IMG/VR virus record: IMGVR_UViG_3300032219_002522
Location: 1 to 64,000 of that record
Length of the DNA: 64,000 nucleotides
From: a virus
Taxonomy: Duplodnaviria; Caudoviricetes
Reading direction: 5' to 3' (one strand)
Shown here in pieces: positions 3,658 through 62,253 of the stretch. Position 1 is the first letter of the stretch. Each line of letters begins with the position of its first letter. Made by a program: the position numbers and the translations under genes. The notes below the pieces were generated by a model that saw only the letters and a program-made list of their open reading frames with translations, ran no database searches and was not told the origin of the DNA.

Positions 3658-3998
3658 TCGAACTTATCTATTATCCAAAATCCGATAACCATTATAATAG
3701 AAAATACTAATAATGTTATTAAAGAGTCCATTTAACTATATATGATAGCATATACCATATTTATTATCCTGTCAACATTAATGGTAACTTCTGGATTTTT
3801 GTTTTGGATAATATCACTATTTACTGGAGATCTTAAAAGACCAATATTATCACTAATCGCATATATATTTTGGCCATTAAGTCTAGCTTTTATAACCTTT
3901 TATGCTTATTTATTAAATAGATATAATTCTAGGAAATCTATTTTTTAATCATATTATTTTTACTACATTTATAAAAATAAATCTAGATATATAATATC

Positions 3999-4655
3999 AT
4001 GAGATCTATTAAAACATTTGAAAATTTTTCATCTACCCATTATTTATGGAACGATGCTTCTTTTTGGTTAGATGAGCTTCATCCGGAGGAGATATGCTTT
4101 CTATCAATGTATTCTAAAAAAATAGATGATACAAAGTATAAAAAAAATAACGAGATTCCTCTATTTAAAGTTGACCTAGATGCTCCCGAAGAAGTTTCTA
4201 TAGATGATGACGACGACGATGCTTCAGCTAGTTTTGAAATGATCTATATTATACCATCAAAAAATGGGGATGCTACTCTATCTTTTGAAGTATCTGCTTC
4301 AGGATATTTTACACCAGTAAGAACTTATGGATATTATGATCCACCAGAGGGAGGAGATCTAATATTAGATAATATAGATATAGATTCAGTATATTATTTA
4401 GATTTTGAAGAAAATTTTGAAATTGATTTCTCCGCTGGATCATACACTTTTAAATCTGAATTTATAGATAGAAAAATGCTAAATGATCTTATGATTTATG
4501 TAGCAGAAGAAAGAATACCGAGCGAGGAATCTAGAGTAAAAACTAATCTTCCACCAATACCACAGGGTCTATTAGATAAATGTGAAAATATAAGGAAAAA
4601 GAATCCCTCGATAATGAAGGGATATGATATAATTAGCAGATTTAATACCAAATAA
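3999..4655 (+). CDS. Hypothetical protein with MRSIKTFENF motif
   Basis: ORF track; shared N-terminal motif; GATATATA at 3986. Confidence 0.7.
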   Translation: MRSIKTFENFSSTHYLWNDASFWLDELHPEEICFLSMYSKKIDDTKYKKNNEIPLFKVDLDAPEEVSIDDDDDDASASFEMIYIIPSKNGDATLSFEVSASGYFTPVRTYGYYDPPEGGDLILDNIDIDSVYYLDFEENFEIDFSAGSYTFKSEFIDRKMLNDLMIYVAEERIPSEESRVKTNLPPIPQGLLDKCENIRKKNPSIMKGYDIISRFNTK

Positions 4656-43141: not shown

Positions 43142-43804
43142 ATGAAATTAGTATTTATATCAGATACCCACAATCAACACAATAATATAAATGTTCCTGA
43201 CGGGGATTTTATTATACATTGTGGGGATGTTTCAGGTAGAGGATATAAAAGTGAAATAGAATCTTTTGTCGATTGGTTTTCTTCATTACCTCATAGACAC
43301 AAAATAATGATTCCTGGTAATCACGATTTTCTTTTTGAAGAATATTACGACATCGCTAAAAATATGGTGGATTCTAGAGGTATCGTTTGTTTGATCGATA
43401 GCGGAATAGAAATAGAGGGAATAAAATTTTGGGGATCTCCAATAACCCCATATTTTCATAATTGGGCTTTTAATAGATATCGCGGATCTTCTATTGAACA
43501 ACACTGGAACAAAATACCGGAAGGAATAGATGTACTGTTAACCCACGGACCTCCTGCTTATTTACAAAATCATTTGTCGATGGTATTGGAAGGGGAAGAC
43601 GTTGGTTGTCAAGATCTATATAAAGCAATACAAAGAGTAAAACCTAAGATTAATGCTTTTGGACATATTCACGAAGGATATGGAACATCTGAAGAGGATG
43701 GAGTATTATATATGAATTGTAGTATTTTAAACAGAAGATACTCAATACAAAATAAACCTATAGAAGTATTATACGAAGATGGAGGATTTTCTCTCTATAA
43801 ATAA
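43142..43804 (+). CDS. Metallophosphoesterase (MPPED/239FB-like)
   Basis: ISDTH, IHCGD, PGNHD, THGPP, FGHIHE. Confidence 0.9.
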   Translation: MKLVFISDTHNQHNNINVPDGDFIIHCGDVSGRGYKSEIESFVDWFSSLPHRHKIMIPGNHDFLFEEYYDIAKNMVDSRGIVCLIDSGIEIEGIKFWGSPITPYFHNWAFNRYRGSSIEQHWNKIPEGIDVLLTHGPPAYLQNHLSMVLEGEDVGCQDLYKAIQRVKPKINAFGHIHEGYGTSEEDGVLYMNCSILNRRYSIQNKPIEVLYEDGGFSLYK

Positions 43805-52874: not shown

Positions 52875-53352
52875 TAGAAACAAAACCTAAAAACATACCT
52901 ATTAAATGACCCCCGTGGGATATTCCATCGGGGTCATTTAGTGTAACGACCTCTCCTATCAATATAATAGCCAAAATTGGTATAAGGAATTTATTTGATA
53001 ATAGTAATCTTGTTAAAAGAAAATACACCAATCCAGATATACCTATAGAAATTTGAACTCCGAAAAAAGTAAGTATAAAAGTAAAGGTCTGAACGACTAT
53101 AGTTATTAATACCATCTGCTTTATATCATATTTGTTACCACTATGAATAAGTAACAAAAATATTGCTATTATATTAAATAGAAAATGATCTAAAGATTGG
53201 TGAATAAATCCACTAATAAATGGTAAGGATATAGCTAAATCAGCATTTCCCCCAAGTATAAGCATCATAATTAATCCTAGCGGGTATGCTAATACGCATA
53301 CTCCTAATACCTTTAATGTTTCTATAGCAGATCTTTTTAAATTTTCTTTCAT
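52792..53352 (-). CDS. Rhomboid-family intramembrane serine protease
   Basis: FIHQSLDHFLFN, IGISG catalytic Ser motif, ISHGGHLIG catalytic His, several TM helices. Confidence 0.75.
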   Translation of the reverse strand: MKENLKRSAIETLKVLGVCVLAYPLGLIMMLILGGNADLAISLPFISGFIHQSLDHFLFNIIAIFLLLIHSGNKYDIKQMVLITIVVQTFTFILTFFGVQISIGISGLVYFLLTRLLLSNKFLIPILAIILIGEVVTLNDPDGISHGGHLIGMFLGFVSINTVIRKYLDRNHRMNQLARSIFVPQQ

Positions 53353-53438
53353 TTTTTTGTTTTGTAATACAATAGTAGAAAACCCAAAGAAATATAAAAA
53401 AAGATTCTAAATCATTTTTTATATTAAATAAAAAGGTC

Positions 53439-53474
53439 TATATTTGTGAAACAAAACAAAAGGAACGATATATA
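53439..53474 (+). promoter_or_regulatory. Tandem promoters of tRNA array 1 (host-type TATATTTG and phage GATATATA)
   Basis: TATATTTG 53439-53446 matches the Bacteroidota -7 element TAnnTTTG; GATATATA 53467-53474; same layout at 59121-59156. Confidence 0.65.
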
Positions 53475-53482
53475 ACAGATAT

Positions 53483-53557
53483 ATGAAAAACCTAAACAAC
53501 ATATTACCTTTAATATTAAGACCGTCGATAAGACGATCTCTAAAGGTCCTGTGTTAG
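53483..53557 (+). CDS. Leader peptide of tRNA array 1 (MKNLNNILPLILRPSIRRSLKVLC)
   Basis: Codons 7-17 ATA TTA CCT TTA ATA TTA AGA CCG TCG ATA AGA match the downstream tRNAs; 3' end overlaps the antiterminator. Confidence 0.8.
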   Translation: MKNLNNILPLILRPSIRRSLKVLC

Positions 53558-53612
53558 TTTTCAATATATACTAAACTAAAAAACCGGGACCTTTAAAAGC
53601 CCCGGTTTTTTT
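53541..53612 (+). promoter_or_regulatory. Attenuator 1 (antiterminator/terminator pair)
   Basis: TAAAGGTCCTG (53541-51) pairs with CGGGACCTTTA (53585-95), which overlaps the terminator AAAAAACCGGG..CCCGGTTTTTTT (53578-53612). Confidence 0.8.
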
Positions 53613-53642
53613 ATGGTCTTTGAAATATTGAATTATTAAATT

Positions 53643-53729
53643 AGAGAGTTGCCAGAGTCAGGCTTAATGGATCAGTCTTGAAAACTGACGTAGTGAAAGC
53701 TACCAGGGGTTCGAATCCCTCACTCTCTG
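53643..53729 (+). tRNA. tRNA-Ser(TGA)
   Basis: AGAGAGT/ACTCTCT acceptor, TCAGT-CTTGAAA-ACTGA, long variable arm, GTTCGAATC. Confidence 0.93.
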
Positions 53730-53734
53730 CTCAT

Positions 53735-53806
53735 GGGTCTATAGTTAAAGGGATATAACCCTAGCCTTCTAAGCTTGTATTCCTGGTTCGAGTCCAGGTG
53801 GACCTA
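53735..53806 (+). tRNA. tRNA-Arg(TCT)
   Basis: Anticodon loop CTTCTAA; CCTGG-TTCGAGT-CCAGG T arm. Confidence 0.9.
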
Positions 53807-53973
53807 CACAAAGCCCTCTGCCTAGCGCTGGGTATGGATCGAAGATAGAATAGGCCTCTACACCGTAGACAGGTAGGATACCTCGGTATTCTTTAATGAT
53901 ATGCACACTTATTCTCTAAATCGTGGGTTAGCACAGTTTGTATGTTCTGGGGATATTTAAAGACATACAATTT

Positions 53974-54046
53974 CGGGATGTAGATCAGTTGGTAGATCGC
54001 CTGGTTTGGGGCCAGAAGGCCCTAGGTTCGAGTCCTAGTATTCCGA
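53974..54046 (+). tRNA. tRNA-Pro(TGG)
   Basis: CGGGATG/TATTCCG acceptor, loop TTTGGGG, CTAGG-TTCGAGT-CCTAG. Confidence 0.88.
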
Positions 54047-54053
54047 CAGCCAC

Positions 54054-54127
54054 AGAGGCGTAGCTCAATTGGTTAGAGCACATGCCTTATACGCATGCGG
54101 TCACGAGTTCGACTCTCGTCGTCTCTA
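54054..54127 (+). tRNA. tRNA-Ile(TAT)
   Basis: AGAGGCG/CGTCTCT acceptor, CATGC-CTTATAC-GCATG anticodon arm. Confidence 0.88.
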
Positions 54128-54130
54128 CTT

Positions 54131-54204
54131 GGTCCCTTAGCTCAGTAGGTTAGAGCAACTGACTCATAATCAGTAGGTCCACGGTTCGAGCCCGTGAGGG
54201 ACCA
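54131..54204 (+). tRNA. tRNA(CAT), probably Ile2 (lysidine type) rather than Met
   Basis: ACTGA-CTCATAA-TCAGT; GGTCCCT acceptor with C4:G69 and C5:G68 as in bacterial Ile2. Confidence 0.85.
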
Positions 54205-54219
54205 CAAAATTAATAATCT

Positions 54220-54300
54220 GCCTGGGTGGTGAAATTGGTAGACACGTTCGGCTTAAGATCGAATGCGAAATGCGTGAGGGTTCGAGTCCCTCCTCGGGTA
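54220..54300 (+). tRNA. tRNA-Leu(TAA)
   Basis: TTCGG-CTTAAGA-TCGAA, type II variable arm, GAGGG-TTCGAGT-CCCTC. Confidence 0.92.
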
Positions 54301-54305
54301 CATAT

Positions 54306-54408
54306 ATAAGAGTGGCGGAAGCGAGATCATTTATGATCCGATGGAGAGACGCTAGGGTGTCATGCCAGAGAACGAAAATTCATGTTGGTTCAAGTCCAAC
54401 CTCTTGTA
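54306..54408 (+). ncRNA. tRNA-like RNA with a hairpin inserted in the D loop and a degenerate anticodon arm
   Basis: ATAAGAG/CTCTTGT acceptor, TGGCGGAA..GACGC D arm containing GATCAT-TT-ATGATC, perfect GTTGG-TTCAAGT-CCAAC T arm. Confidence 0.6.
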
Positions 54409-54421
54409 CTTTTTAGATTTT

Positions 54422-54973
54422 TTACTTAACCTCTTTAATTCTGAAGTATCCTCGGTGATCGGTTTTACCTGGTTCTACACCATCTTCGAATTTACAATAT
54501 CCAGTAGAATTAAAGAAGTTCCATTCTTCTCTTCTACCTTTACTAAGTTTATCCTGTGGCATTAAAGATCTATTATATTCTTGATTTTCTTGGTTAATTC
54601 TCTTATACATTCCATTATAAAATGTAGATGTGCTAAGTAAATTCGTAGCTTCTTCCATTAATCTTCGATTGATATTATAGTCAAATATAGCCTCATGAAT
54701 AGAAATCTCTGAAATGTCTCTTCTATAGCTAATCCATTGTGATATAACTCCACCATAATTATATGGTGTATAACCTAAATCCCCTACGTAAAAAAGATTA
54801 AAATATGGAGAATTCTCTTTGCTGTGATCGAACAACCTTATGTTAGTATTAAAATGTGGTACAGTTCCACTGAATTCTTTCATTCTATTATAGAATTCAG
54901 GCAGTATCTCTAATGTTATTGATGTCGGATTATTATTTGCATCAAATCCCTCAAATAGCTTAATGTGTTTCAT
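54422..54973 (-). CDS. Hypothetical protein with MKHIKLFEGF motif
   Basis: ORF track; GATATATA on the minus strand at 54979-54986. Confidence 0.7.
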   Translation of the reverse strand: MKHIKLFEGFDANNNPTSITLEILPEFYNRMKEFSGTVPHFNTNIRLFDHSKENSPYFNLFYVGDLGYTPYNYGGVISQWISYRRDISEISIHEAIFDYNINRRLMEEATNLLSTSTFYNGMYKRINQENQEYNRSLMPQDKLSKGRREEWNFFNSTGYCKFEDGVEPGKTDHRGYFRIKEVK

Positions 54974-55019
54974 ATGATTATATATCTAAATATCTAAATA
55001 AATGTGATATATAATGTAT

Positions 55020-56633
55020 ATGAAAAAGTACATAAAACTATTCGAGGAGTTTGTTTTTGAATACCTATCAAAAGCTTCTAAAATAATTAATAATATTAGC
55101 GAATTACCTAAAGTTGGAGAACCTGTAGTCAAACAGGATTTTAGCGAGGACGGTATAGTAGCTATTGATTGGAAGAACTTAGTTTTTATTAGATCCTCAG
55201 ATGAGCTTCCCACTCTTCGAGGTAAAGATATGCTACTTCACACAGGAAAAGCTCTAAAGAGCGTAGGTTTCAATGACTCTTTCGAGAAGTACCTCAAGAA
55301 GAAGTACAATAATGACATCAACGACCCTGAAAATACATGGATAAAGGAAGAACCTCACTACAAGGACTTTGAAACTTTTCGAAAATGGATGATAGATGCT
55401 CATTCCACCAGATGGACAAAACACTTTACGTTGAACCACGTAGTTTCTTCTCACTCTGGTGGAAACTGGACAGGTAACAAGTACATCTACTTGATGCCCG
55501 GAGAATCTATGATCAAGACTAACGGAAAACCTGCTAGTCTCTTTGCTATAGACACTTACTATGACAAGAGCTTGGTAGTGTCTGACGGTACAGTAGTTCT
55601 TTACTTACCTGAAGCAGATGAAGAAGTTAGGGAGTTTGTGGCTAAAACAGCTGAGAACAGAAACCAAATTTATTTCTTGAAGATAAAAGGAGATATTGTC
55701 GATTACGAGCTGAAAGATGCCAACGATGCGATAGAAGCTATGGGATACACTACGTTTAGTGGGGGCTCTCACTACTCAACCGAGTATAATCTTGACAGTG
55801 AGATGAGAGATTTACAAGACAGGGAAGACATCAGAAAAAGTGGACTACACTGGGGTTCTAAATGGTACAATCTTGAGAAGGGACAAACACACTGGGAAGA
55901 TTTTATGAGTCTAGGGAAGATAAAAAGATCCCAGTATAAAAACTTGAACATCAAGAAAGAAGAACAGGAGTACCAAGAACATAGAGGATTCAGCAAAGAT
56001 TACTTGAAAGAGTGCGTGAAATCGTTATCAAAATCTCATTCGGAAGATCCTTTCGACAAAGAAGTTGTGCGCAACTACTTACGATACATGACGATGGTTT
56101 GCAAGATCATAGCTACTCCTAAATTTTCAATGAAACAGTTCGATGAGACTGCAGGTTTCAGTTGGAATAATTCGGATGAACACGCGTTAAGTATGGATTC
56201 ATGGGATCCGAATAAATTAGAATCTGAGTTAGATAGAGATTTTGAGGCTCACCCTGAATACACAAGACCTGAACGATACGGTTACGGAACTCCAGCACAA
56301 AAAGAAGTTATGGCTAAAAGGAGCAATGAATACATAGGGGAGTATTACTATTTCAATAAGTACCTACTGTTCGACATAAAGCAAGCGTTTAAAACTTCAT
56401 GGATAGGAAAGTTCCTCCAGGATAACCGTAAAGAACTAGAAATTTTACAGGATATTATTATTAAAAAGAAAGAAAGCCCAGAATGGGAAGAAGCTGCCGG
56501 TAAGATAGCTGATAGATTAGTAGACAGTCCAGTATTTCCTGATCTTTTAAACATTGGATCATATCTAATAGCAATGAATAGAGGAGCTAAAAAGTACGGA
56601 TATAAGGACGTTTATGACATGCTTGAATTATAA
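55020..56633 (+). CDS. Large hypothetical protein with MKKYIKLFEEF motif
   Basis: ORF track; GATATATA at 55006. Confidence 0.7.
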   Translation: MKKYIKLFEEFVFEYLSKASKIINNISELPKVGEPVVKQDFSEDGIVAIDWKNLVFIRSSDELPTLRGKDMLLHTGKALKSVGFNDSFEKYLKKKYNNDINDPENTWIKEEPHYKDFETFRKWMIDAHSTRWTKHFTLNHVVSSHSGGNWTGNKYIYLMPGESMIKTNGKPASLFAIDTYYDKSLVVSDGTVVLYLPEADEEVREFVAKTAENRNQIYFLKIKGDIVDYELKDANDAIEAMGYTTFSGGSHYSTEYNLDSEMRDLQDREDIRKSGLHWGSKWYNLEKGQTHWEDFMSLGKIKRSQYKNLNIKKEEQEYQEHRGFSKDYLKECVKSLSKSHSEDPFDKEVVRNYLRYMTMVCKIIATPKFSMKQFDETAGFSWNNSDEHALSMDSWDPNKLESELDRDFEAHPEYTRPERYGYGTPAQKEVMAKRSNEYIGEYYYFNKYLLFDIKQAFKTSWIGKFLQDNRKELEILQDIIIKKKESPEWEEAAGKIADRLVDSPVFPDLLNIGSYLIAMNRGAKKYGYKDVYDMLEL

Positions 56634-57088
56634 TTAGAATAATATGATTAAAAAACTATCATATTTCGATATATCCGGAATAATTACAAAGCAATATCCT
56701 GAATATACTCTAATAATAGGTAAAAAATCTGAGGATATATTTAATTATTTTGCCGTAGATGAGTTACATGGACTATATAGAGATAAATGTCATGATAATC
56801 CAAATAACGCTTATATAGCTGGTTTATGTAACGTTTATCCTAATGATCATAATAAATTCTTTATCTTTCTAAATTCGATTAGATTAGATAACGGATACAA
56901 GGACGTCCTTTTAATAATGCACGAGTGTATGCACATGTCTCTAGAGATTCATGGTACAGATTTGACATATAGAGATGGAAATGACATAGAAGAAATTGCT
57001 ATAACTTGGGCAGAGAAGAATTCTGAATCAATTTACGAATTCATTATGTCCAAAGGAATATTATAAAAAATAGGATATATAATGGGTC

Positions 57089-57460
57089 ATGCACGATCAC
57101 ATTAAAATATCCGGACTTGGTATAGAAATATACAAAAATGATATACCAGGGGTAAGATGGTATAAAGCTCAGTCTTTTATTAATGATCTTGGAAATGGAT
57201 GGAGATTGCCTTCATTAAAAGAACTTGCTTTAATAAAAACACTAAGAGATCTTGGTGGCATAGGTAGATTTCCTACCGAATATTCAGATTTTTCTGATTC
57301 GTATTATTGGAGTAATGAGGAAGGCGAGGTTACTAGTATAAGAACACAAGGGAAAGATGGGAAAAGTAACTATGCTTACTTTTTTGATATGTCGGAGGGA
57401 ACTTCTTCACATAATAAAAAATCATACGATCTTAGGGTTAGGTTTGTCAGAGATATATAG
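57089..57460 (+). CDS. DUF1566/Lcl-like domain protein
   Basis: W..A...GWRLPSLKEL...YYWS...AY...RVRFVR. Confidence 0.7.
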   Translation: MHDHIKISGLGIEIYKNDIPGVRWYKAQSFINDLGNGWRLPSLKELALIKTLRDLGGIGRFPTEYSDFSDSYYWSNEEGEVTSIRTQGKDGKSNYAYFFDMSEGTSSHNKKSYDLRVRFVRDI

Positions 57461-57463
57461 AAT

Positions 57464-58315
57464 ATGCCAACAACAAGACCCTTTGCATATAATCCAACAC
57501 AATCAACAATTTCAGGAACTACAAATGTAGGTACATTATGCGTAGGTGTATCTGCTTTAAACTATGGTGCAAATCCAGGAGGACTAACTTGGTGGATGGG
57601 TCCGGACGAGGATAATTCTTATGTAATATCTAAAGATGTACCAACTTCAAACTTTCCTACCCCAGTAGGAAATGTAGGCACTGTACAATTTTGGAGATGC
57701 TCTAATACAGATGAAGCTTTTAGAAGTACAGTACAAATAATAAGCGGTATCACTCAAGCTTCCGCTTTAGCAGCTAGTGATTGGTTAACAACAAATGGAT
57801 ATTGGACTAATCGGAATCCATATCTTGCAGGTTTATATAAAACAACTTACTCCGGATATTTTGCTGATAATGTTAGTTTCTTTGCAACTGCTACTCCTGC
57901 ATCAGTAGGGGGAAATCCAGCTACATCAGTACAAACAACATCTATATTTGAACCCGCTCAAAATGATGGCGAGAATTTTAGTTGTCAATGGCTAGGTTAT
58001 TTTAAACCAACAACTTCTGAAACATATACATTCTACACTTCAAGTGACGACGCTTCGTATGTGTGGATAGGTTCAAATGCACAGACAGGGTTTACAACTA
58101 CAAATTCAACAGTTAATAACGGGGGATTACATGGGACACAAGAACGTTCAGGTTCTATTGCATTAACTGCTGGTACATATTATCAAATAAGAATACAATT
58201 TGGTGAACTAAGTGGAGGTGACGTAATGACTTTTAGTTATTCAACCCCTACTATTACAAAAACTACCAATGTAACAGGACTAGTATTTTATAATCCGTCC
58301 ACTAATGGATTCTAA
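57464..58315 (+). CDS. PA14-domain protein (possible virion adhesin)
   Basis: NFS.QW.GYF.P...TYTFYTSSDDAS.VWI, NNGGLHG..ERSG.I.L.AG.YY.IRI.FGE..GG. Confidence 0.85.
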   Translation: MPTTRPFAYNPTQSTISGTTNVGTLCVGVSALNYGANPGGLTWWMGPDEDNSYVISKDVPTSNFPTPVGNVGTVQFWRCSNTDEAFRSTVQIISGITQASALAASDWLTTNGYWTNRNPYLAGLYKTTYSGYFADNVSFFATATPASVGGNPATSVQTTSIFEPAQNDGENFSCQWLGYFKPTTSETYTFYTSSDDASYVWIGSNAQTGFTTTNSTVNNGGLHGTQERSGSIALTAGTYYQIRIQFGELSGGDVMTFSYSTPTITKTTNVTGLVFYNPSTNGF

Positions 58316-58350
58316 TTCAATAATTAGATATATACAATAAAATCAAAGAA

Positions 58351-58629
58351 ATGAAGCATATTAAAAATTATCAGGCTAAAAATTCTAAAATTAACGAGGG
58401 ATTTTGGGATTCTCTTTTTGGTAGACCCACTGTTGATGATGCTGCTCACGATCAAATGAGAGGTCAAGGATGGAGTCACAGAGGTAAAGATGAAGAAAAC
58501 TACATCATGTTCCAAGGGCAAAAGTTCTATCCCGATCAAATCCAATATGATGATGTTTATTCAACTAAACAAATACCAAGAGTTGAAGGGGGTATGTTAA
58601 TCGTAGCTAATCCAGCTTGGAATTTGTAA
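58351..58629 (+). CDS. Hypothetical protein with MKHIKNY..INE motif
   Basis: ORF track; GATATATA at 58327. Confidence 0.65.
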   Translation: MKHIKNYQAKNSKINEGFWDSLFGRPTVDDAAHDQMRGQGWSHRGKDEENYIMFQGQKFYPDQIQYDDVYSTKQIPRVEGGMLIVANPAWNL

Positions 58630-59120
58630 AAAAAATCAGAAATCTTTTTTTTCTTATTATTTTGATCTCTATATTTGGATCCTAATTAAAAAACTTTTAC
58701 AATGAAATTAAACAAAATGAGCAGGGTTACTATGAAGGTAGCTCACGAGAATCCAGATGCTAGCGTGAACTTCACAGCGGTAGGGATAGGAAAAGATCAA
58801 AGAGAAGCAGCTATCTTCGCATTAGGATCCTTCTTAAATGTTATGAATGGTATTAGTGAGGAAGGAATTTCGGATTACAATGAAGCTTTAGAAATGGTAA
58901 ATGGTCAATATTCGGAAGCTGAAATAGTATCGTTTATGGAAAAACAATTAGAAAGCAATTCAGGTTCTTTCTTTAATGCTTACGAATCTACTGATGTTGA
59001 TTATTCATGGGATGAAGTAGAAGGTGAAGAAGCTGGAGGATTAATCCAAGAAATGGAAATAATCGAAGAGGAATATTAAAAAATATCAAAGAAACATTTT
59101 TTTATTCAATAAAAAGATTG

Positions 59121-59156
59121 TACATTTGTGAAACAATATCAGAAAAGAGATATATA
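59121..59156 (+). promoter_or_regulatory. Tandem promoters of tRNA array 2 (TACATTTG and GATATATA)
   Basis: TACATTTG-TGAAACAA mirrors TATATTTG-TGAAACAA at 53439; GATATATA at 59149-59156. Confidence 0.65.
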
Positions 59157-59167
59157 AACAAGAAACA

Positions 59168-59275
59168 ATGAAAAACTGTAGTAAACATAACATCATTCGC
59201 ATGAACAGTCAGATTAATGGCTGCTATCAAACGGTGGCGTTTTGGGCTAAGGGAAAAGATCCCGATCGAAGCTAA
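59168..59275 (+). CDS. Leader peptide of tRNA array 2 (MKNCSKHNIIRMNSQINGCYQTVAFWAKGKDPDRS)
   Basis: Contains cognate codons for all seven downstream anticodons; last codons and stop overlap the antiterminator. Confidence 0.8.
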   Translation: MKNCSKHNIIRMNSQINGCYQTVAFWAKGKDPDRS

Positions 59276-59336
59276 TACAAGAAATCATATTTAGATATTT
59301 TGAAAAGGCTTTGATTAACTTCAAAGCCTTTTTTTT
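59264..59336 (+). promoter_or_regulatory. Attenuator 2 (antiterminator/terminator pair)
   Basis: GATCGAAGCT (59264-73) pairs with GGCTTTGATT (59307-16), the 5' arm of terminator AAAAGGCTTTGA-TTAACT-TCAAAGCCTTTTTTTT. Confidence 0.78.
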
Positions 59337-59359
59337 GTTCTTTGACATATTGGAAATTG

Positions 59360-59440
59360 GGAGCGGTAGCAAAGTTGGTCAATGCACCGGACTGAAAATC
59401 CGGCCATGTGGGTTCGAAGGTTCGAGTCCTTCTACTTCCA
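59360..59440 (+). tRNA. tRNA-Phe(GAA), chimeric with a foreign 3' end; possibly non-functional
   Basis: CCGGA-CTGAAAA-TCCGG arm; two successive GGTTCGA motifs; poorly paired acceptor GGAGCGG/TACTTCC. Confidence 0.7.
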
Positions 59441-59445
59441 CAAAA

Positions 59446-59518
59446 GGTCCCGTAGTTCAATGGATTAGAATGGAACACTACGGATGTTCTGATCCTGGTT
59501 CGAATCCAGGCGGGGTCT
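59446..59518 (+). tRNA. tRNA-Arg(ACG)
   Basis: GAACA-CTACGGA-TGTTC; CCTGG-TTCGAAT-CCAGG. Confidence 0.9.
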
Positions 59519-59529
59519 CAAACAAATAA

Positions 59530-59603
59530 GGTCGCGTGGCCGAGTGGTTAGGCGCTAGTCTGCAAAACTAGTAACACTGGTTCAATTCCAGTCACGACCT
59601 CCA
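59530..59603 (+). tRNA. tRNA-Cys(GCA)
   Basis: CTAGT-CTGCAAA-ACTAG; U73 discriminator and encoded CCA. Confidence 0.93.
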
Positions 59604-59747
59604 AAAAATAAAATAATAAAGCCTATGGATGAAAAAGTGGTAGTAAAAGGAAGTTTCCCCTCTAGTAAAGAAAACTTAAAAAGAGAAACATTAAAATTTA
59701 AACACGCCGAAAGATTAATAAAAAGAATTAAAAGGCTAATTAACAAA

Positions 59748-59833
59748 GGAAAGTAATCTCAGATGGTGACGGGGCTCGCCTGCTAAGCGAAGCGTACCTT
59801 AATTGGTATTTGGTTCGATTCCAATTCTTTCCG
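59748..59833 (+). tRNA. tRNA-Ser(GCT)
   Basis: TCGC-CTGCTAA-GCGA, long variable arm, G73. Confidence 0.87.
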
Positions 59834-59839
59834 CAATAT

Positions 59840-59913
59840 TGACATATAGCTCAGTTGGTTAGAGCGTTGATCTGATACGTCAAAGGCCGAAGGTTCGAAT
59901 CCTTCTATGTCAC
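59840..59913 (+). tRNA. tRNA-Ile(GAT)
   Basis: TGACATA/TATGTCA acceptor; TTGAT-CTGATAC-GTCAA. Confidence 0.88.
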
Positions 59914-59918
59914 CCCAC

Positions 59919-59991
59919 GCCTTTGTAGCTCAGCTGGTAGAGCGCTTCACTTGTAATGAAGTTGTCGCAGGTTCGATTCCTGTCAAAGGCT
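59919..59991 (+). tRNA. tRNA-Thr(TGT)
   Basis: GCCTTTG/CAAAGGC acceptor; CTTCA-CTTGTAA-TGAAG. Confidence 0.93.
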
Positions 59992-59996
59992 CATAT

Positions 59997-60069
59997 TTTC
60001 CCCTCGTCTAATTGGCGGGACATGTGGTTTTGGACCAGAAGAGTCCAGGTTCGAATCCTTGGAGGAAAA
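59997..60069 (+). tRNA. tRNA-Gln(TTG)
   Basis: Gln-type D arm TCGTCTAATTGGCGGGAC; loop TTTTGGA; several stem mismatches. Confidence 0.8.
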
Positions 60070-60111
60070 CAAAAAGATAAATACAATGTCCAGTATGTAA
60101 AATTTAAGATT

Positions 60112-60603
60112 ATGAAAGTTCTAGTATTAAATAACGACTTTACGCCAGTGAGTGTTACCAATATAGCTCGGGGATTCAAACTTGTATATAAAGGTAAAGC
60201 CGAAGTATTAGAACATGACGAATCTAATCCTATTGTTACAGATCAACAAGTTTATAAAAGACCATCAGTTATAAGGCTTTTAAAGTATGTTGTTCTTCCA
60301 TTTAAGAAGCTAAAACCCACTAGGGAGAACATATTTAAGAGAGACGAATTAAAGTGCTTATATTGTGATGCTACAAAGCAGCTTACAATAGATCACGTAA
60401 TCCCTAGATCTAGAGGAGGTATTAATACATGGGAGAATCTAGCAACTTGCTGTTCTAGATGCAACGGTAAGAAAGGAGATAGAACTCCAGAAGAAGCAGG
60501 AATGAAGATGCGTCACAAACCATTTAAACCTGGATATGGATATTTTATCCGGAATTTTTCTAAAGGAATGGATGTTTGGACATCATATCTTCCAGAATAT
60601 TAA
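60112..60603 (+). CDS. HNH endonuclease (McrA/HNH_5-like) at the end of the tRNA array
   Basis: VLVLN..F.P, PSVIRL, R.NIF.RD...C.YC, LTIDHVIPRSRGG..TWENL..CC..CN..KG.RTP.EA.M; start refined to 60112. Confidence 0.92.
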   Translation: MKVLVLNNDFTPVSVTNIARGFKLVYKGKAEVLEHDESNPIVTDQQVYKRPSVIRLLKYVVLPFKKLKPTRENIFKRDELKCLYCDATKQLTIDHVIPRSRGGINTWENLATCCSRCNGKKGDRTPEEAGMKMRHKPFKPGYGYFIRNFSKGMDVWTSYLPEY

Positions 60604-60606
60604 TAT

Positions 60607-62253
60607 CTATAGAAGAACTCTTTCAGCATATTCCATAACTGCAGGATGTGTGTCTACTAAATGTTTAACAAGTGCAATAGTATTAGGATCCTCAGAATTT
60701 TGTGTTTGTTCTAGGAAAGATCCTAACATTTCCACTCCATCTTTTGTTAGACCTAATATATTTATAACATCGTTTTTGTCGTATTTATTGTCGCTAAGTT
60801 CTTTAAATAGATCAATATCCTCTAAGCTGAAGAATCCTCCATTCTTCTCAGAGTTAAATGCCTTAACAATTTCATTATATGTTATGGAATTGTCTTTTTT
60901 AATTATAGATACTATAATGTTTTTAAAAGCGTCCATCTCTTCTTTGGAATATTCTCCCTCTTCTATAGATCTTTGAACTCCTAAACTTCCTAGAGCATGT
61001 ATTAAAGCTATATTATTTTTACCTGTTTTTTGTTCTATCGATTGAATAATTTTTTTGATTATCAATTCACTTTCAAAATTTTTAGCTATAGATTCCTCTA
61101 TTTCAGGAGAATAGATTCCGTATTTTTTCATGAAATCTACATAATTTTGATTACCGCTTGAAACGCTACTGTTGCTTCTGTTAGCAGAACTAGTAATTCT
61201 TCCGCTAGGATCTATAGTAAGAGATGTTAGGAATTTATTATCAGTCTTAGGAAGATCTAATAGATTTATAGATATTTGTAGTCTTCCAGTTGTATAGGTC
61301 CAGAATGTTGAATCAGTTCTTATACAATATGGTGCATTTGATACTTTACAAACCGCTCTCATACCTTCCGCTGATCTAGCAGATGTTACCACTATCTTTT
61401 TAGCAATATTATAGTATAGTATTTTTATTGATGGAGATATAGACTTTAAAAGCTCTATAAATTCACCTATTCCTGATCCCCACCCAGATACTTTATCTTC
61501 GCAGTCCCTAACAAAATCTTTAAATGCCACGTAAGTATCTGCAAATTCAGGATAAGTCCTTGTGTCTTTATATTTACTTCCATAATTAATTAGCTGCTCC
61601 TCTGCGGTTTCCTCTATATTAGTTTCAGGATCTACAATAGGCTTTAATTTTTTTATGTCGGTTACTGCGTGATATAGTCTATCTAAAAGTTCAGCCCTTT
61701 CAGGATCAGTATTTTTTAGTTTAAGAGATTCTGCAAATTCTCTTCTTATTGGTCCTACGAAATTATCTATAAATTCCTTTATAGGCTTTTGTGCTTCTAC
61801 ATTCTCTAGATCATCCCATAGTTTTTCATAAGCTCTTTCACCCTGTGGTGTTCTTTTTATATAATTATCAATGTTACCAAAAGGAAGAGGAAACGTAGAA
61901 AGCATCGGAGACATTTGCTCATATTTTCTATAAAGGTTCTCTACTGAAAAAGAATTAGGATCGTTATCTCCATTGGACATTGGTAATTTCTCTACTATAC
62001 GAAAATACGTAAAAGGATACACCAAACCTGGTTTTTTAACTTTATTTAAAAAGTAATCTCTTACTTCTATGTAATCTGGATTGCTTAATATTTTTTTCTC
62101 TTCCTCTGGAGTAAATTCTATCTTCTCCATAGGATCTAATTTAAGCCTCCTTTTTTTATCGTCTGCTGCTAATTTTAATAAAAGAGCCTTAGCGGGAGCC
62201 ACATTTTCATTGATTGGATAAAATTGGTCGAATGATTTTAAATTTCTATTCAT
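60607..62253 (-). CDS. Large hypothetical protein, tandem paralog B
   Basis: Colinear with 62266-63933 (INENV..AK.LLLKLA, FTPEEEKKILSNPDY, VKKPGLVYPFTYF, EYAER.LL). Confidence 0.75.
   Translation of the reverse strand: MNRNLKSFDQFYPINENVAPAKALLLKLAADDKKRRLKLDPMEKIEFTPEEEKKILSNPDYIEVRDYFLNKVKKPGLVYPFTYFRIVEKLPMSNGDNDPNSFSVENLYRKYEQMSPMLSTFPLPFGNIDNYIKRTPQGERAYEKLWDDLENVEAQKPIKEFIDNFVGPIRREFAESLKLKNTDPERAELLDRLYHAVTDIKKLKPIVDPETNIEETAEEQLINYGSKYKDTRTYPEFADTYVAFKDFVRDCEDKVSGWGSGIGEFIELLKSISPSIKILYYNIAKKIVVTSARSAEGMRAVCKVSNAPYCIRTDSTFWTYTTGRLQISINLLDLPKTDNKFLTSLTIDPSGRITSSANRSNSSVSSGNQNYVDFMKKYGIYSPEIEESIAKNFESELIIKKIIQSIEQKTGKNNIALIHALGSLGVQRSIEEGEYSKEEMDAFKNIIVSIIKKDNSITYNEIVKAFNSEKNGGFFSLEDIDLFKELSDNKYDKNDVINILGLTKDGVEMLGSFLEQTQNSEDPNTIALVKHLVDTHPAVMEYAERVLL

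Follow-up and report, generated by a model that had tools for sequence, protein, structure and literature searches.

The DNA analysed here, called the window throughout, is the first 64 kb (64,000 nucleotides) of a 115.8-kb IMG/VR virus record (G000), and open reading frames (ORFs) and other features are given by their positions in it. The record has a GC content of 33%, and the phage is probably giant, since these 115.8 kb are rated 42% complete by CheckV. The best matches of a Dda-like helicase encoded in the window include crAss-like and Flavobacterium phages, at ~30% identity. A Bacteroidota host for this phage is tentatively suggested; its identity, and hence the coupling of transcription to translation there, is presumed. 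A search of the INPHARED phage collection with positions 58000-61000 returned matches at the level of tRNAs only, without a related isolate, and Pfam and PHROG annotation of the neighbouring genes revealed no tRNA-repair or tRNA-modification context.

The window contains two tRNA arrays. tRNA array 2 occupies 59359-60070 on the plus strand and encodes, in order, Phe(GAA), Arg(ACG), Cys(GCA), a 43-codon ORF, Ser(GCT), Ile(GAT), Thr(TGT) and Gln(TTG). Six of the seven tRNAs are called by ARAGORN in the window; Ser(GCT), at ~59749-59838, is missed there, where it gives a sub-threshold Rfam match (38 bits) to the long-arm tRNA-Sec model, and is called at the same place in the homologous contig L161. 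The 43-codon ORF (59625-59756) lies between tRNA-Cys and tRNA-Ser, with its stop overlapping the start of the latter, and encodes a basic peptide, MDEKVVVKGSFPSSKENLKRETLKFKHAERLIKRIKRLINKGK, which shows 51-75% identity in five relatives and has no Pfam match. Directly 3′ of the last tRNA is an HNH endonuclease gene (60115-60603; Pfam HNH_5, E = 4.6e-17), and its position beside array 2 would be in keeping with remodelling of the tRNA region by homing elements.

A short leader ORF precedes array 2, 83 nt 5′ of its first tRNA. This ORF (59168-59275, plus strand) runs from an ATG at 59168 to a TAA at 59273-59275 and has 35 codons, of which positions 2-28 are the sensing codons discussed below. 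As the first-pass annotation had described, the encoded peptide, MKNCSKHNIIRMNSQINGCYQTVAFWAKGKDPDRS, uses 18 of the 20 amino-acid types, Leu and Glu being absent, a breadth that is not unusual alone (P = 0.075). Homologues of leader 2 are found in seven other viral contigs (L153, L068, L161, L165/L138, L150, L152 and L159), and within this set of eight the frame stays open, although L161 carries two separate 3-nt deletions. Conservation of the peptide is good, and the variable sites are biased to the third codon position, with 3, 7 and 12 at positions 1, 2 and 3, respectively. No Rfam match was found at leader 2 by cmscan of 53300-60200 with E up to 1.

The leader begins 31 nt 3′ of a conserved box (59096-59136, plus strand), a T-run followed by TACATTTGTGAAACAA, within which TTTGTGAAAC is invariant across the eight homologues. 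The same box is present 5′ of tRNA leaders in other phage records. It contains TAnnTTTG, a putative counterpart of the Bacteroidota -7 promoter element, and the box would function as a promoter. Between the box and the leader ATG lies a GATATATAA motif in the 5′ UTR (59149-59157, plus strand). The core ATATATAA has 27 copies in the 116-kb record, more than half of them 3-20 nt 5′ of the ATG of a gene, both leaders included; copies of (G)ATATATAA occur, for example, at 3987, 50097, 55007, 57075 and, on the minus strand, 54985. A related ATATATA(A/G) is found 5′ of most other leaders, including most of those in the giant phage records G006 and G007. The GATATATAA/ATATATAA motif may be a phage-specific promoter or start-context element.

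A further conserved element, TGTTCTTTGACATA (59336-59349, plus strand), is located between the terminator of the leader and the first tRNA and is nearly invariant in the eight homologues. Similar elements follow the terminator of array 1 (53617) and the terminator at L182. The element is a candidate boxA, resembling the rrn consensus (E. coli TGCTCTTTAACAA). Among 120 genome hits of the exact 14-mer, none has a 16S start within 1.5 kb; many of these hits are MAG contigs, which are expected often to be without rRNA operons.

Terminator and antiterminator

The intrinsic terminator (59302-59336, plus strand) consists of a 13-bp stem, a 6-nt loop and a run of eight T residues at 59329-59336. The stem, described at first pass as a perfect 12-bp helix, has 12 Watson-Crick pairs and one additional G-U pair. 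Its 5′ arm at 59307-59316 is common to a second structure, the antiterminator, whose 5′ strand ("region 2"; 59264-59273, plus strand) is formed by the three final leader codons together with the first base of the stop. Here, the pairing of GATCGAAGCT (59264-59273) with GGCTTTGATT (59307-59316) holds exactly as it had been proposed, over 10 bp with three G-U pairs, and it closes around an inner hairpin at 59278-59302 (plus strand). This hairpin is seen stacked inside the antiterminator in the RNAfold structures of the nascent RNA, and 89% of its cells are paired across the homologues.

The pairing of the terminator 5′ arm with upstream RNA has an energy of -12.4 kcal/mol, compared to -3.7 +/- 2.3 kcal/mol when the upstream part is dinucleotide-shuffled, and the observed value is reached by none of 300 shuffles. 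For the nascent RNA up to the terminator loop, the minimum-energy fold is the antiterminator in all eight homologues, while the full-length RNA folds into the terminator. The energies of the two conformers, the computation of which had been recommended at first pass, are -16.5 kcal/mol for the isolated terminator hairpin and -14.5 kcal/mol for the antiterminator. A possible "region 1", GGCGTTTTGGGC (59236-59247, plus strand), is invariant in the eight homologues, and in the full-length minimum-energy fold a 7-bp helix joins 59239-59245 to 59266-59272. It is possible that GGCGTTTTGGGC would pair weakly with the antiterminator strand and so act as an anti-antiterminator.

Both structures are maintained among the homologues. 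In the terminator, 100% of cells are paired and one pair is compensatory (C-G to U-A), while the main antiterminator helix has 97.5% paired cells and has changed only by pair-preserving transitions (G-C to G-U, A-U to G-U or C-G to U-G). The variable base in the shared arm is a C in six homologues and a U in the window and L152; this change is compensated in the terminator and accommodated as a G-U pair in the antiterminator. As the eight sequences are close relatives, this conservation agrees with the proposed switch and is not strong evidence of covariation.

A closer look at how a translating ribosome would affect these structures comes from placing a 30-nt footprint at each A-site codon in turn. 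In this masking analysis the antiterminator strand is free with the A site at codons 2-28 and covered from codon 29 on. The terminator conformer is the more stable one at equilibrium, by 1-4.5 kcal/mol at every ribosome position, and within this model the choice between conformers would therefore have to be kinetic, as in classical attenuators.

Codon content of the leader and of the array

The codons of leader 2 were compared with the tRNAs encoded downstream, using as background the codon usage of 87 long ORFs of the record, and assuming strict wobble for tRNA reading unless stated. The seven array 2 tRNAs of the window read 14 of the 34 codons that follow the start codon, compared to a background of 0.169 (binomial P = 7e-4), in line with the cognate codons pointed out at first pass. 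Relatives carry a longer array. L152 and L138 have 16 tRNAs behind the leader, in the order Phe, Lys, Trp, Arg(ACG), Cys, Ser(GCT), Ile(GAT), Val(TAC), Asn, Tyr, Ala(TGC), Gly(TCC), Met, His, Thr(TGT) and Gln, where Ser(GCT), not called by ARAGORN in these two contigs, is counted from the conserved gene called in L161. L153 and L161 have the same order as far as their loci reach. Against this 16-tRNA array, 29 of the 34 leader codons are cognate compared to a background of 0.497 (strict wobble, P = 1.7e-5), rising to 31 with superwobble, in which U34 reads whole family boxes. All 16 amino acids of the relatives' array are present in leader 2 (P = 7.5e-4 for a random 34-codon ORF of the genome). 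Within the sensing codons, 25 of 27 are strictly cognate, and the codons that never match the array, GAT, CCC and GAT (Asp, Pro and Asp) at positions 31-33, fall inside the zone that the ribosome would cover.

The match extends to the choice among synonymous codons. Ile is encoded by ATY in three of three instances (background share 0.42), Arg by CGH in two of two (0.08) and Ser by AGY in three of three (0.25), and the product of the background shares for these choices is about 7e-6. That synonymous choice in leader 2 follows the isoacceptors of the array to this extent is remarkable. The leader has no ATA, TTA, AGA or TCN codons, and codons read by array 1 and its extension in relatives, a set with a background of ~0.34, account for only 2 of the 34, both of them GAT in the 3′ tail. 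The description of leader 2 as a "near-universal" tRNA sensor is therefore not borne out: the leader is broad because it is matched to its own 16-tRNA array, as kept in relatives. Most sensing codons occur singly or twice and not in runs, so the sensitivity of leader 2 to any one tRNA may be low.

Compared to L152, the array in the window is without Lys, Trp and the block from Val to His. The alignment of the two sequences is interrupted within tRNA-Phe and picks up again where tRNA-Trp ends, and the tRNA-Phe of the window (59359-59441) is an aberrant, chimeric gene of 83 nt with a duplicated T-arm-like segment. Judged by this alignment break and by the aberrant tRNA-Phe, the window carries a deleted seven-tRNA array behind an unchanged leader. 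The losses at 59359-59441 and 59840-59992 look like recombination deletions between tRNA genes, or an assembly artefact. The codon match of leader 2 in the window is thus partly a relic of a longer array, as only 14 of the 34 leader codons keep a cognate tRNA downstream, and the comparison with relatives supports a view of leader 2 as a sensor matched to a 16-tRNA array that this phage would have since shortened. A separate rearrangement is seen in G002, where ~400 nt (43294-43700) with a 33-nt duplication are inserted at tRNA-Phe and look mobile.

Attenuator 1 and leaders in other phage genomes

Upstream of array 1, positions 53410-53491 match the region 5′ of array 2 at 78% identity. Both regions share one order of parts: a T-run with TAyATTTGTGAAACAA, GATATATAA, ATGAAAAAC opening a short ORF, a terminator, TsTTCTTTGAmATATTG and the tRNAs. 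The terminators of the two arrays are unrelated in sequence, consistent with the earlier remark that the two attenuators share a geometry and not a sequence. Attenuator 1 (53484-53611) has a 24-codon leader, MKNLNNILPLILRPSIRRSLKVLC, in which AAAGGTCC pairs with the terminator arm GGACCTTT, with an energy gain of -7.9 kcal/mol (P = 0.027 against shuffles). It gives a full-length match to the Rfam Thr_leader family that is sub-threshold, at 28 bits with a cut-off of 55. Array 1, with its extension in relatives, comprises Ser TGA, Arg TCT, Pro TGG, Ile TAT, Leu TAA, Glu TTC, Asp GTC and Leu TAG.

Two stretches in or after array 1 are not called as tRNAs. A 166-nt spacer between Arg(TCT) and Pro(TGG) (53808-53973) is kept in L091 and L068, and Leu(TAA) is followed by a tRNA-like 3′ end that is not called as a tRNA (54302-54400); neither segment has an Rfam match. 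In L009 (box at 4045, minus strand), a gene lies between the terminator of leader 1 and the tRNAs as a mobile-looking insertion, and leader 1 has an earlier stop from a 1-nt deletion. In L068 (G003; box at 3685, minus strand), the leader 1 homologue seemingly has no ATG, while the rest of it and the terminator are conserved, and ARAGORN makes no call for Ser TGA, the first tRNA of the array 1 homologue. Such a leader 1 copy could be a cassette in decay.

Beyond the window, non-homologous leader/array pairs were collected by two routes, giving 13 from this lineage and four other phage records, of which two are near-complete giant genomes. One route was a scan of viral contigs for the 16-mer box, which gave mostly chance hits, and only those with tRNAs 3′ of the box were used. 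The other was a census of every tRNA locus in the near-complete giant records G007 (374 kb, 49 tRNAs) and G006 (385 kb, 41 tRNAs), located by tRNA position only. In this census, a short ORF and a terminator were present 5′ of 10 of the 16 tRNA loci, and a leader was not found at L171, L172, L174 and three single-tRNA loci. The leaders differ in what they encode: MKKNLSLSSLLSLSLLSGKRDSWAMS lies upstream of tRNAs for Ser, Ser, Leu, Leu, Leu and Ser, MKKYNAYQQYNQNQNQSSGLSVISPFEK upstream of two for Asn, two for Tyr and three for Gln, MKTNSTYLFMLTAADCAEEDNIGLVELTMR upstream of Asp, Ala, Cys, Glu and Glu, and MFATITKGMYTGTTFTTKKDGKVFSGICES upstream of Lys, Met, Gly and Thr sets. In some of these families, codons for two or three amino acids are clustered in tight runs. 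In L173, the Asn/Tyr/Gln leader terminates at a TAG that is immediately followed by TAA.

In an all-against-all scoring of leaders and arrays, 11 of the 13 arrays are matched best by their own leader. The true pairing of the first six pairs is the best of all 720, and that of all 13 exceeds every one of 200,000 random pairings. Cognate codons also have a positional bias, making up 136 of 236 codons (58%) in the leader bodies and 16 of 104 (15%) in the last eight codons (Fisher P = 1.3e-13), and their scarcity near the end is as expected if a ribosome covers the antiterminator strand there. In families F3-F6, the antiterminator energy gain is not beyond that of shuffles, and the support there is positional only.

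Three of the loci in the giant records, L171 and L174 in G007 and L186 in G006, have tRNAs with the anticodon CTA, amber suppressors that ARAGORN labels "Pyl". These tRNAs hint at TAG reassignment in these giant phages.

Proposed mechanism, alternatives and related systems

Taken together, the region is best interpreted as a ribosome-mediated leader-peptide transcription attenuator in front of phage tRNA array 2, a reading to which we assign a probability of about 0.8. An attenuator gating array 2 was also the central proposal of the first-pass annotation, and it draws support from the codon statistics, the folding, the eight homologues and the twelve further leader/array pairs. The phage would probably make the array tRNAs only when ribosomes slow at the codons that these tRNAs read. 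In the proposed sequence of events, transcription would start at the conserved box (~59121-59136), and the 35-codon leader would be translated while RNA polymerase advances. If all codons are read fast, a ribosome at the last codons or the stop would cover GAUCGAAGCU, allowing the terminator at 59302-59336 to fold, and the tRNAs would not be transcribed. If the ribosome stalls in codons 2-28, where the matching charged tRNA is scarce, GAUCGAAGCU would be free to pair with the terminator 5′ arm and the array would be transcribed. Such a switch would exert negative feedback on tRNA supply, since the array encodes the very tRNAs that read the sensing codons, and depletion of the host tRNA pool, for example by tRNA-cleaving defences, would turn the array on. 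That the leader is translated, in which direction the switch works and what triggers it physiologically are presumed here from the arrangement of the sequence.

A more ordinary account would have the ORF encode a small functional protein, or remain untranslated, ahead of a constitutive terminator, with the tRNAs made by leak-through or from their own promoter and the codon match due to coincidence or bias. Good conservation of the leader peptide among the eight homologues would suit a small protein; against this, the twelve other leaders have unrelated peptides and each mirrors its own array. The conserved element at 59336-59349 could also be something other than boxA. Against a constitutive terminator, the 3′ end of the leader base-pairs with the terminator arm well above chance expectation. 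A separate promoter for the tRNAs appears less likely, as no sigma-70-like site was called in 59300-59360 and no TAnnTTTG was seen in 59337-59358, between terminator 2 and the first tRNA. Coincidence might be argued from the modest number of codons that match the array now present in the window (14 of 34), although the match was measured against the genome's own usage and against swapped leaders. A plain gene with an ordinary terminator leaves the swap test, the positional bias and the pairing energy unexplained, and we consider this account unlikely.

It is also conceivable that the leader RNA senses tRNAs directly, without a ribosome, through T-box-like codon-anticodon pairing that stabilises the antiterminator. 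A tRNA-related output and a terminator/antiterminator switch are indeed what T-boxes have. The Rfam scan of 53300-60200 (E up to 1), however, contains no match to a T-box or other riboswitch, the codons lie in one open frame that is kept through 3-nt indels and third-position changes, and cognate codons avoid the last eight positions, which is expected of a ribosome footprint and not of direct pairing; direct sensing is thus extremely improbable. The switch might instead be reversed, or respond to another signal, as would be the case if the leader timed tRNA expression during infection through overall translation capacity. With 16 amino acids represented, most of them by one or two codons, leader 2 would be sensitive to elongation slowing of any kind, and two candidate promoter elements, the box and ATATATAA, lie 5′ of it. 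The selection of synonymous codons by isoacceptor and the avoidance of array 1 codons point to specific tRNAs instead, as do the tight codon runs of other families, and control by general capacity appears very unlikely.

On the attenuator reading, leader 2 is the broadest sensor of its kind among the leaders examined, with 16 tRNA species represented in one 35-codon ORF. It is likely that in this giant-phage lineage, probably infecting Bacteroidota, tRNA genes are organised as self-tuning operons, each array behind its own codon-matched attenuator. If so, phage tRNA arrays would be regulated by demand and not expressed constitutively, and the leaders would act as intrinsic detectors of a depleted host tRNA pool, also where tRNA-cleaving defence systems cause the depletion. 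The product, tRNA, would relieve the signal, stalling, in a direct feedback loop. The codon list of a leader would tell which tRNAs the phage "expects" to run short, and leader 2 in the window would be a record of past array content, having predicted nine tRNAs still carried by relatives. Leaders of this type would also lend themselves as natural, modular readouts of how available particular tRNA species are.

These considerations bear on why phages carry tRNAs, whether for codon compensation or for escape from tRNA-targeting immunity. Phage tRNA arrays have been described as countering host tRNA depletion or cleavage, supplying tRNAs that the host pool lacks or that nucleases destroy (PMC10264068, PMC11555353, PMC11464382). 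By their titles and abstracts, these papers concern the role of the tRNAs, and they do not contain the term "leader peptide". Leader 2 would represent a need-dependent control that lies upstream of that role.

In a full-text literature search, no report emerged of phage or bacterial tRNA genes under the control of a leader peptide; the cases of such attenuation that it brought up were all protein-coding genes, namely those for amino-acid biosynthesis, synthetases, resistance and the like. The E. coli pheV gene, suspected of having a Phe-rich leader, was considered as a precedent and rejected, as its upstream sequence in K-12 has a promoter only, with no leader ORF or terminator. T-box riboswitches likewise sense tRNA status and choose between terminator and antiterminator 5′ of translation-related genes. 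Unlike leader 2, they bind uncharged tRNA directly through a specifier loop and the T-box sequence with no need of an ORF, and they control synthetase and amino-acid genes, whereas the sensing element of leader 2 is an open reading frame. The putative likeness of TGTTCTTTGACATA to rrn boxA, the site of NusB/NusE antitermination, extends to its placement after a terminator and before a long untranslated operon, as in rRNA leaders.

Attenuation by leader peptides has featured in textbooks for half a century, and its enterobacterial amino-acid leaders, which include ilvGMEDA (Ile/Leu/Val), thr (Thr/Ile), trpL, hisL, pheL, leuL and pheM of pheST, are the closest known class. In common with leader 2, these have a promoter-proximal short ORF whose sensing codons lie 5′ of a tail without sensing function, an antiterminator strand where the ORF ends and an intrinsic terminator that uses the same arm, with the position of the ribosome deciding between the two. 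The multivalent ilv and thr leaders, which like leader 2 sense more than one amino acid each, are its closest relatives. Neither leader 2 nor attenuator 1 reaches the gathering score of the described Rfam leader families (Thr_leader, His_leader, Trp_leader and others). In contrast to the enterobacterial leaders, leader 2 would control tRNA genes and not biosynthetic enzymes or synthetases, so that the product feeds back directly on the sensor; it covers up to 16 amino acids, with synonymous choice at the level of isoacceptors; and the system is phage-borne and repeated with a different leader for each array. The class of mechanism is classical, while its tRNA-gene target, the isoacceptor-level matching, the breadth of 16 species and the phage setting are new.
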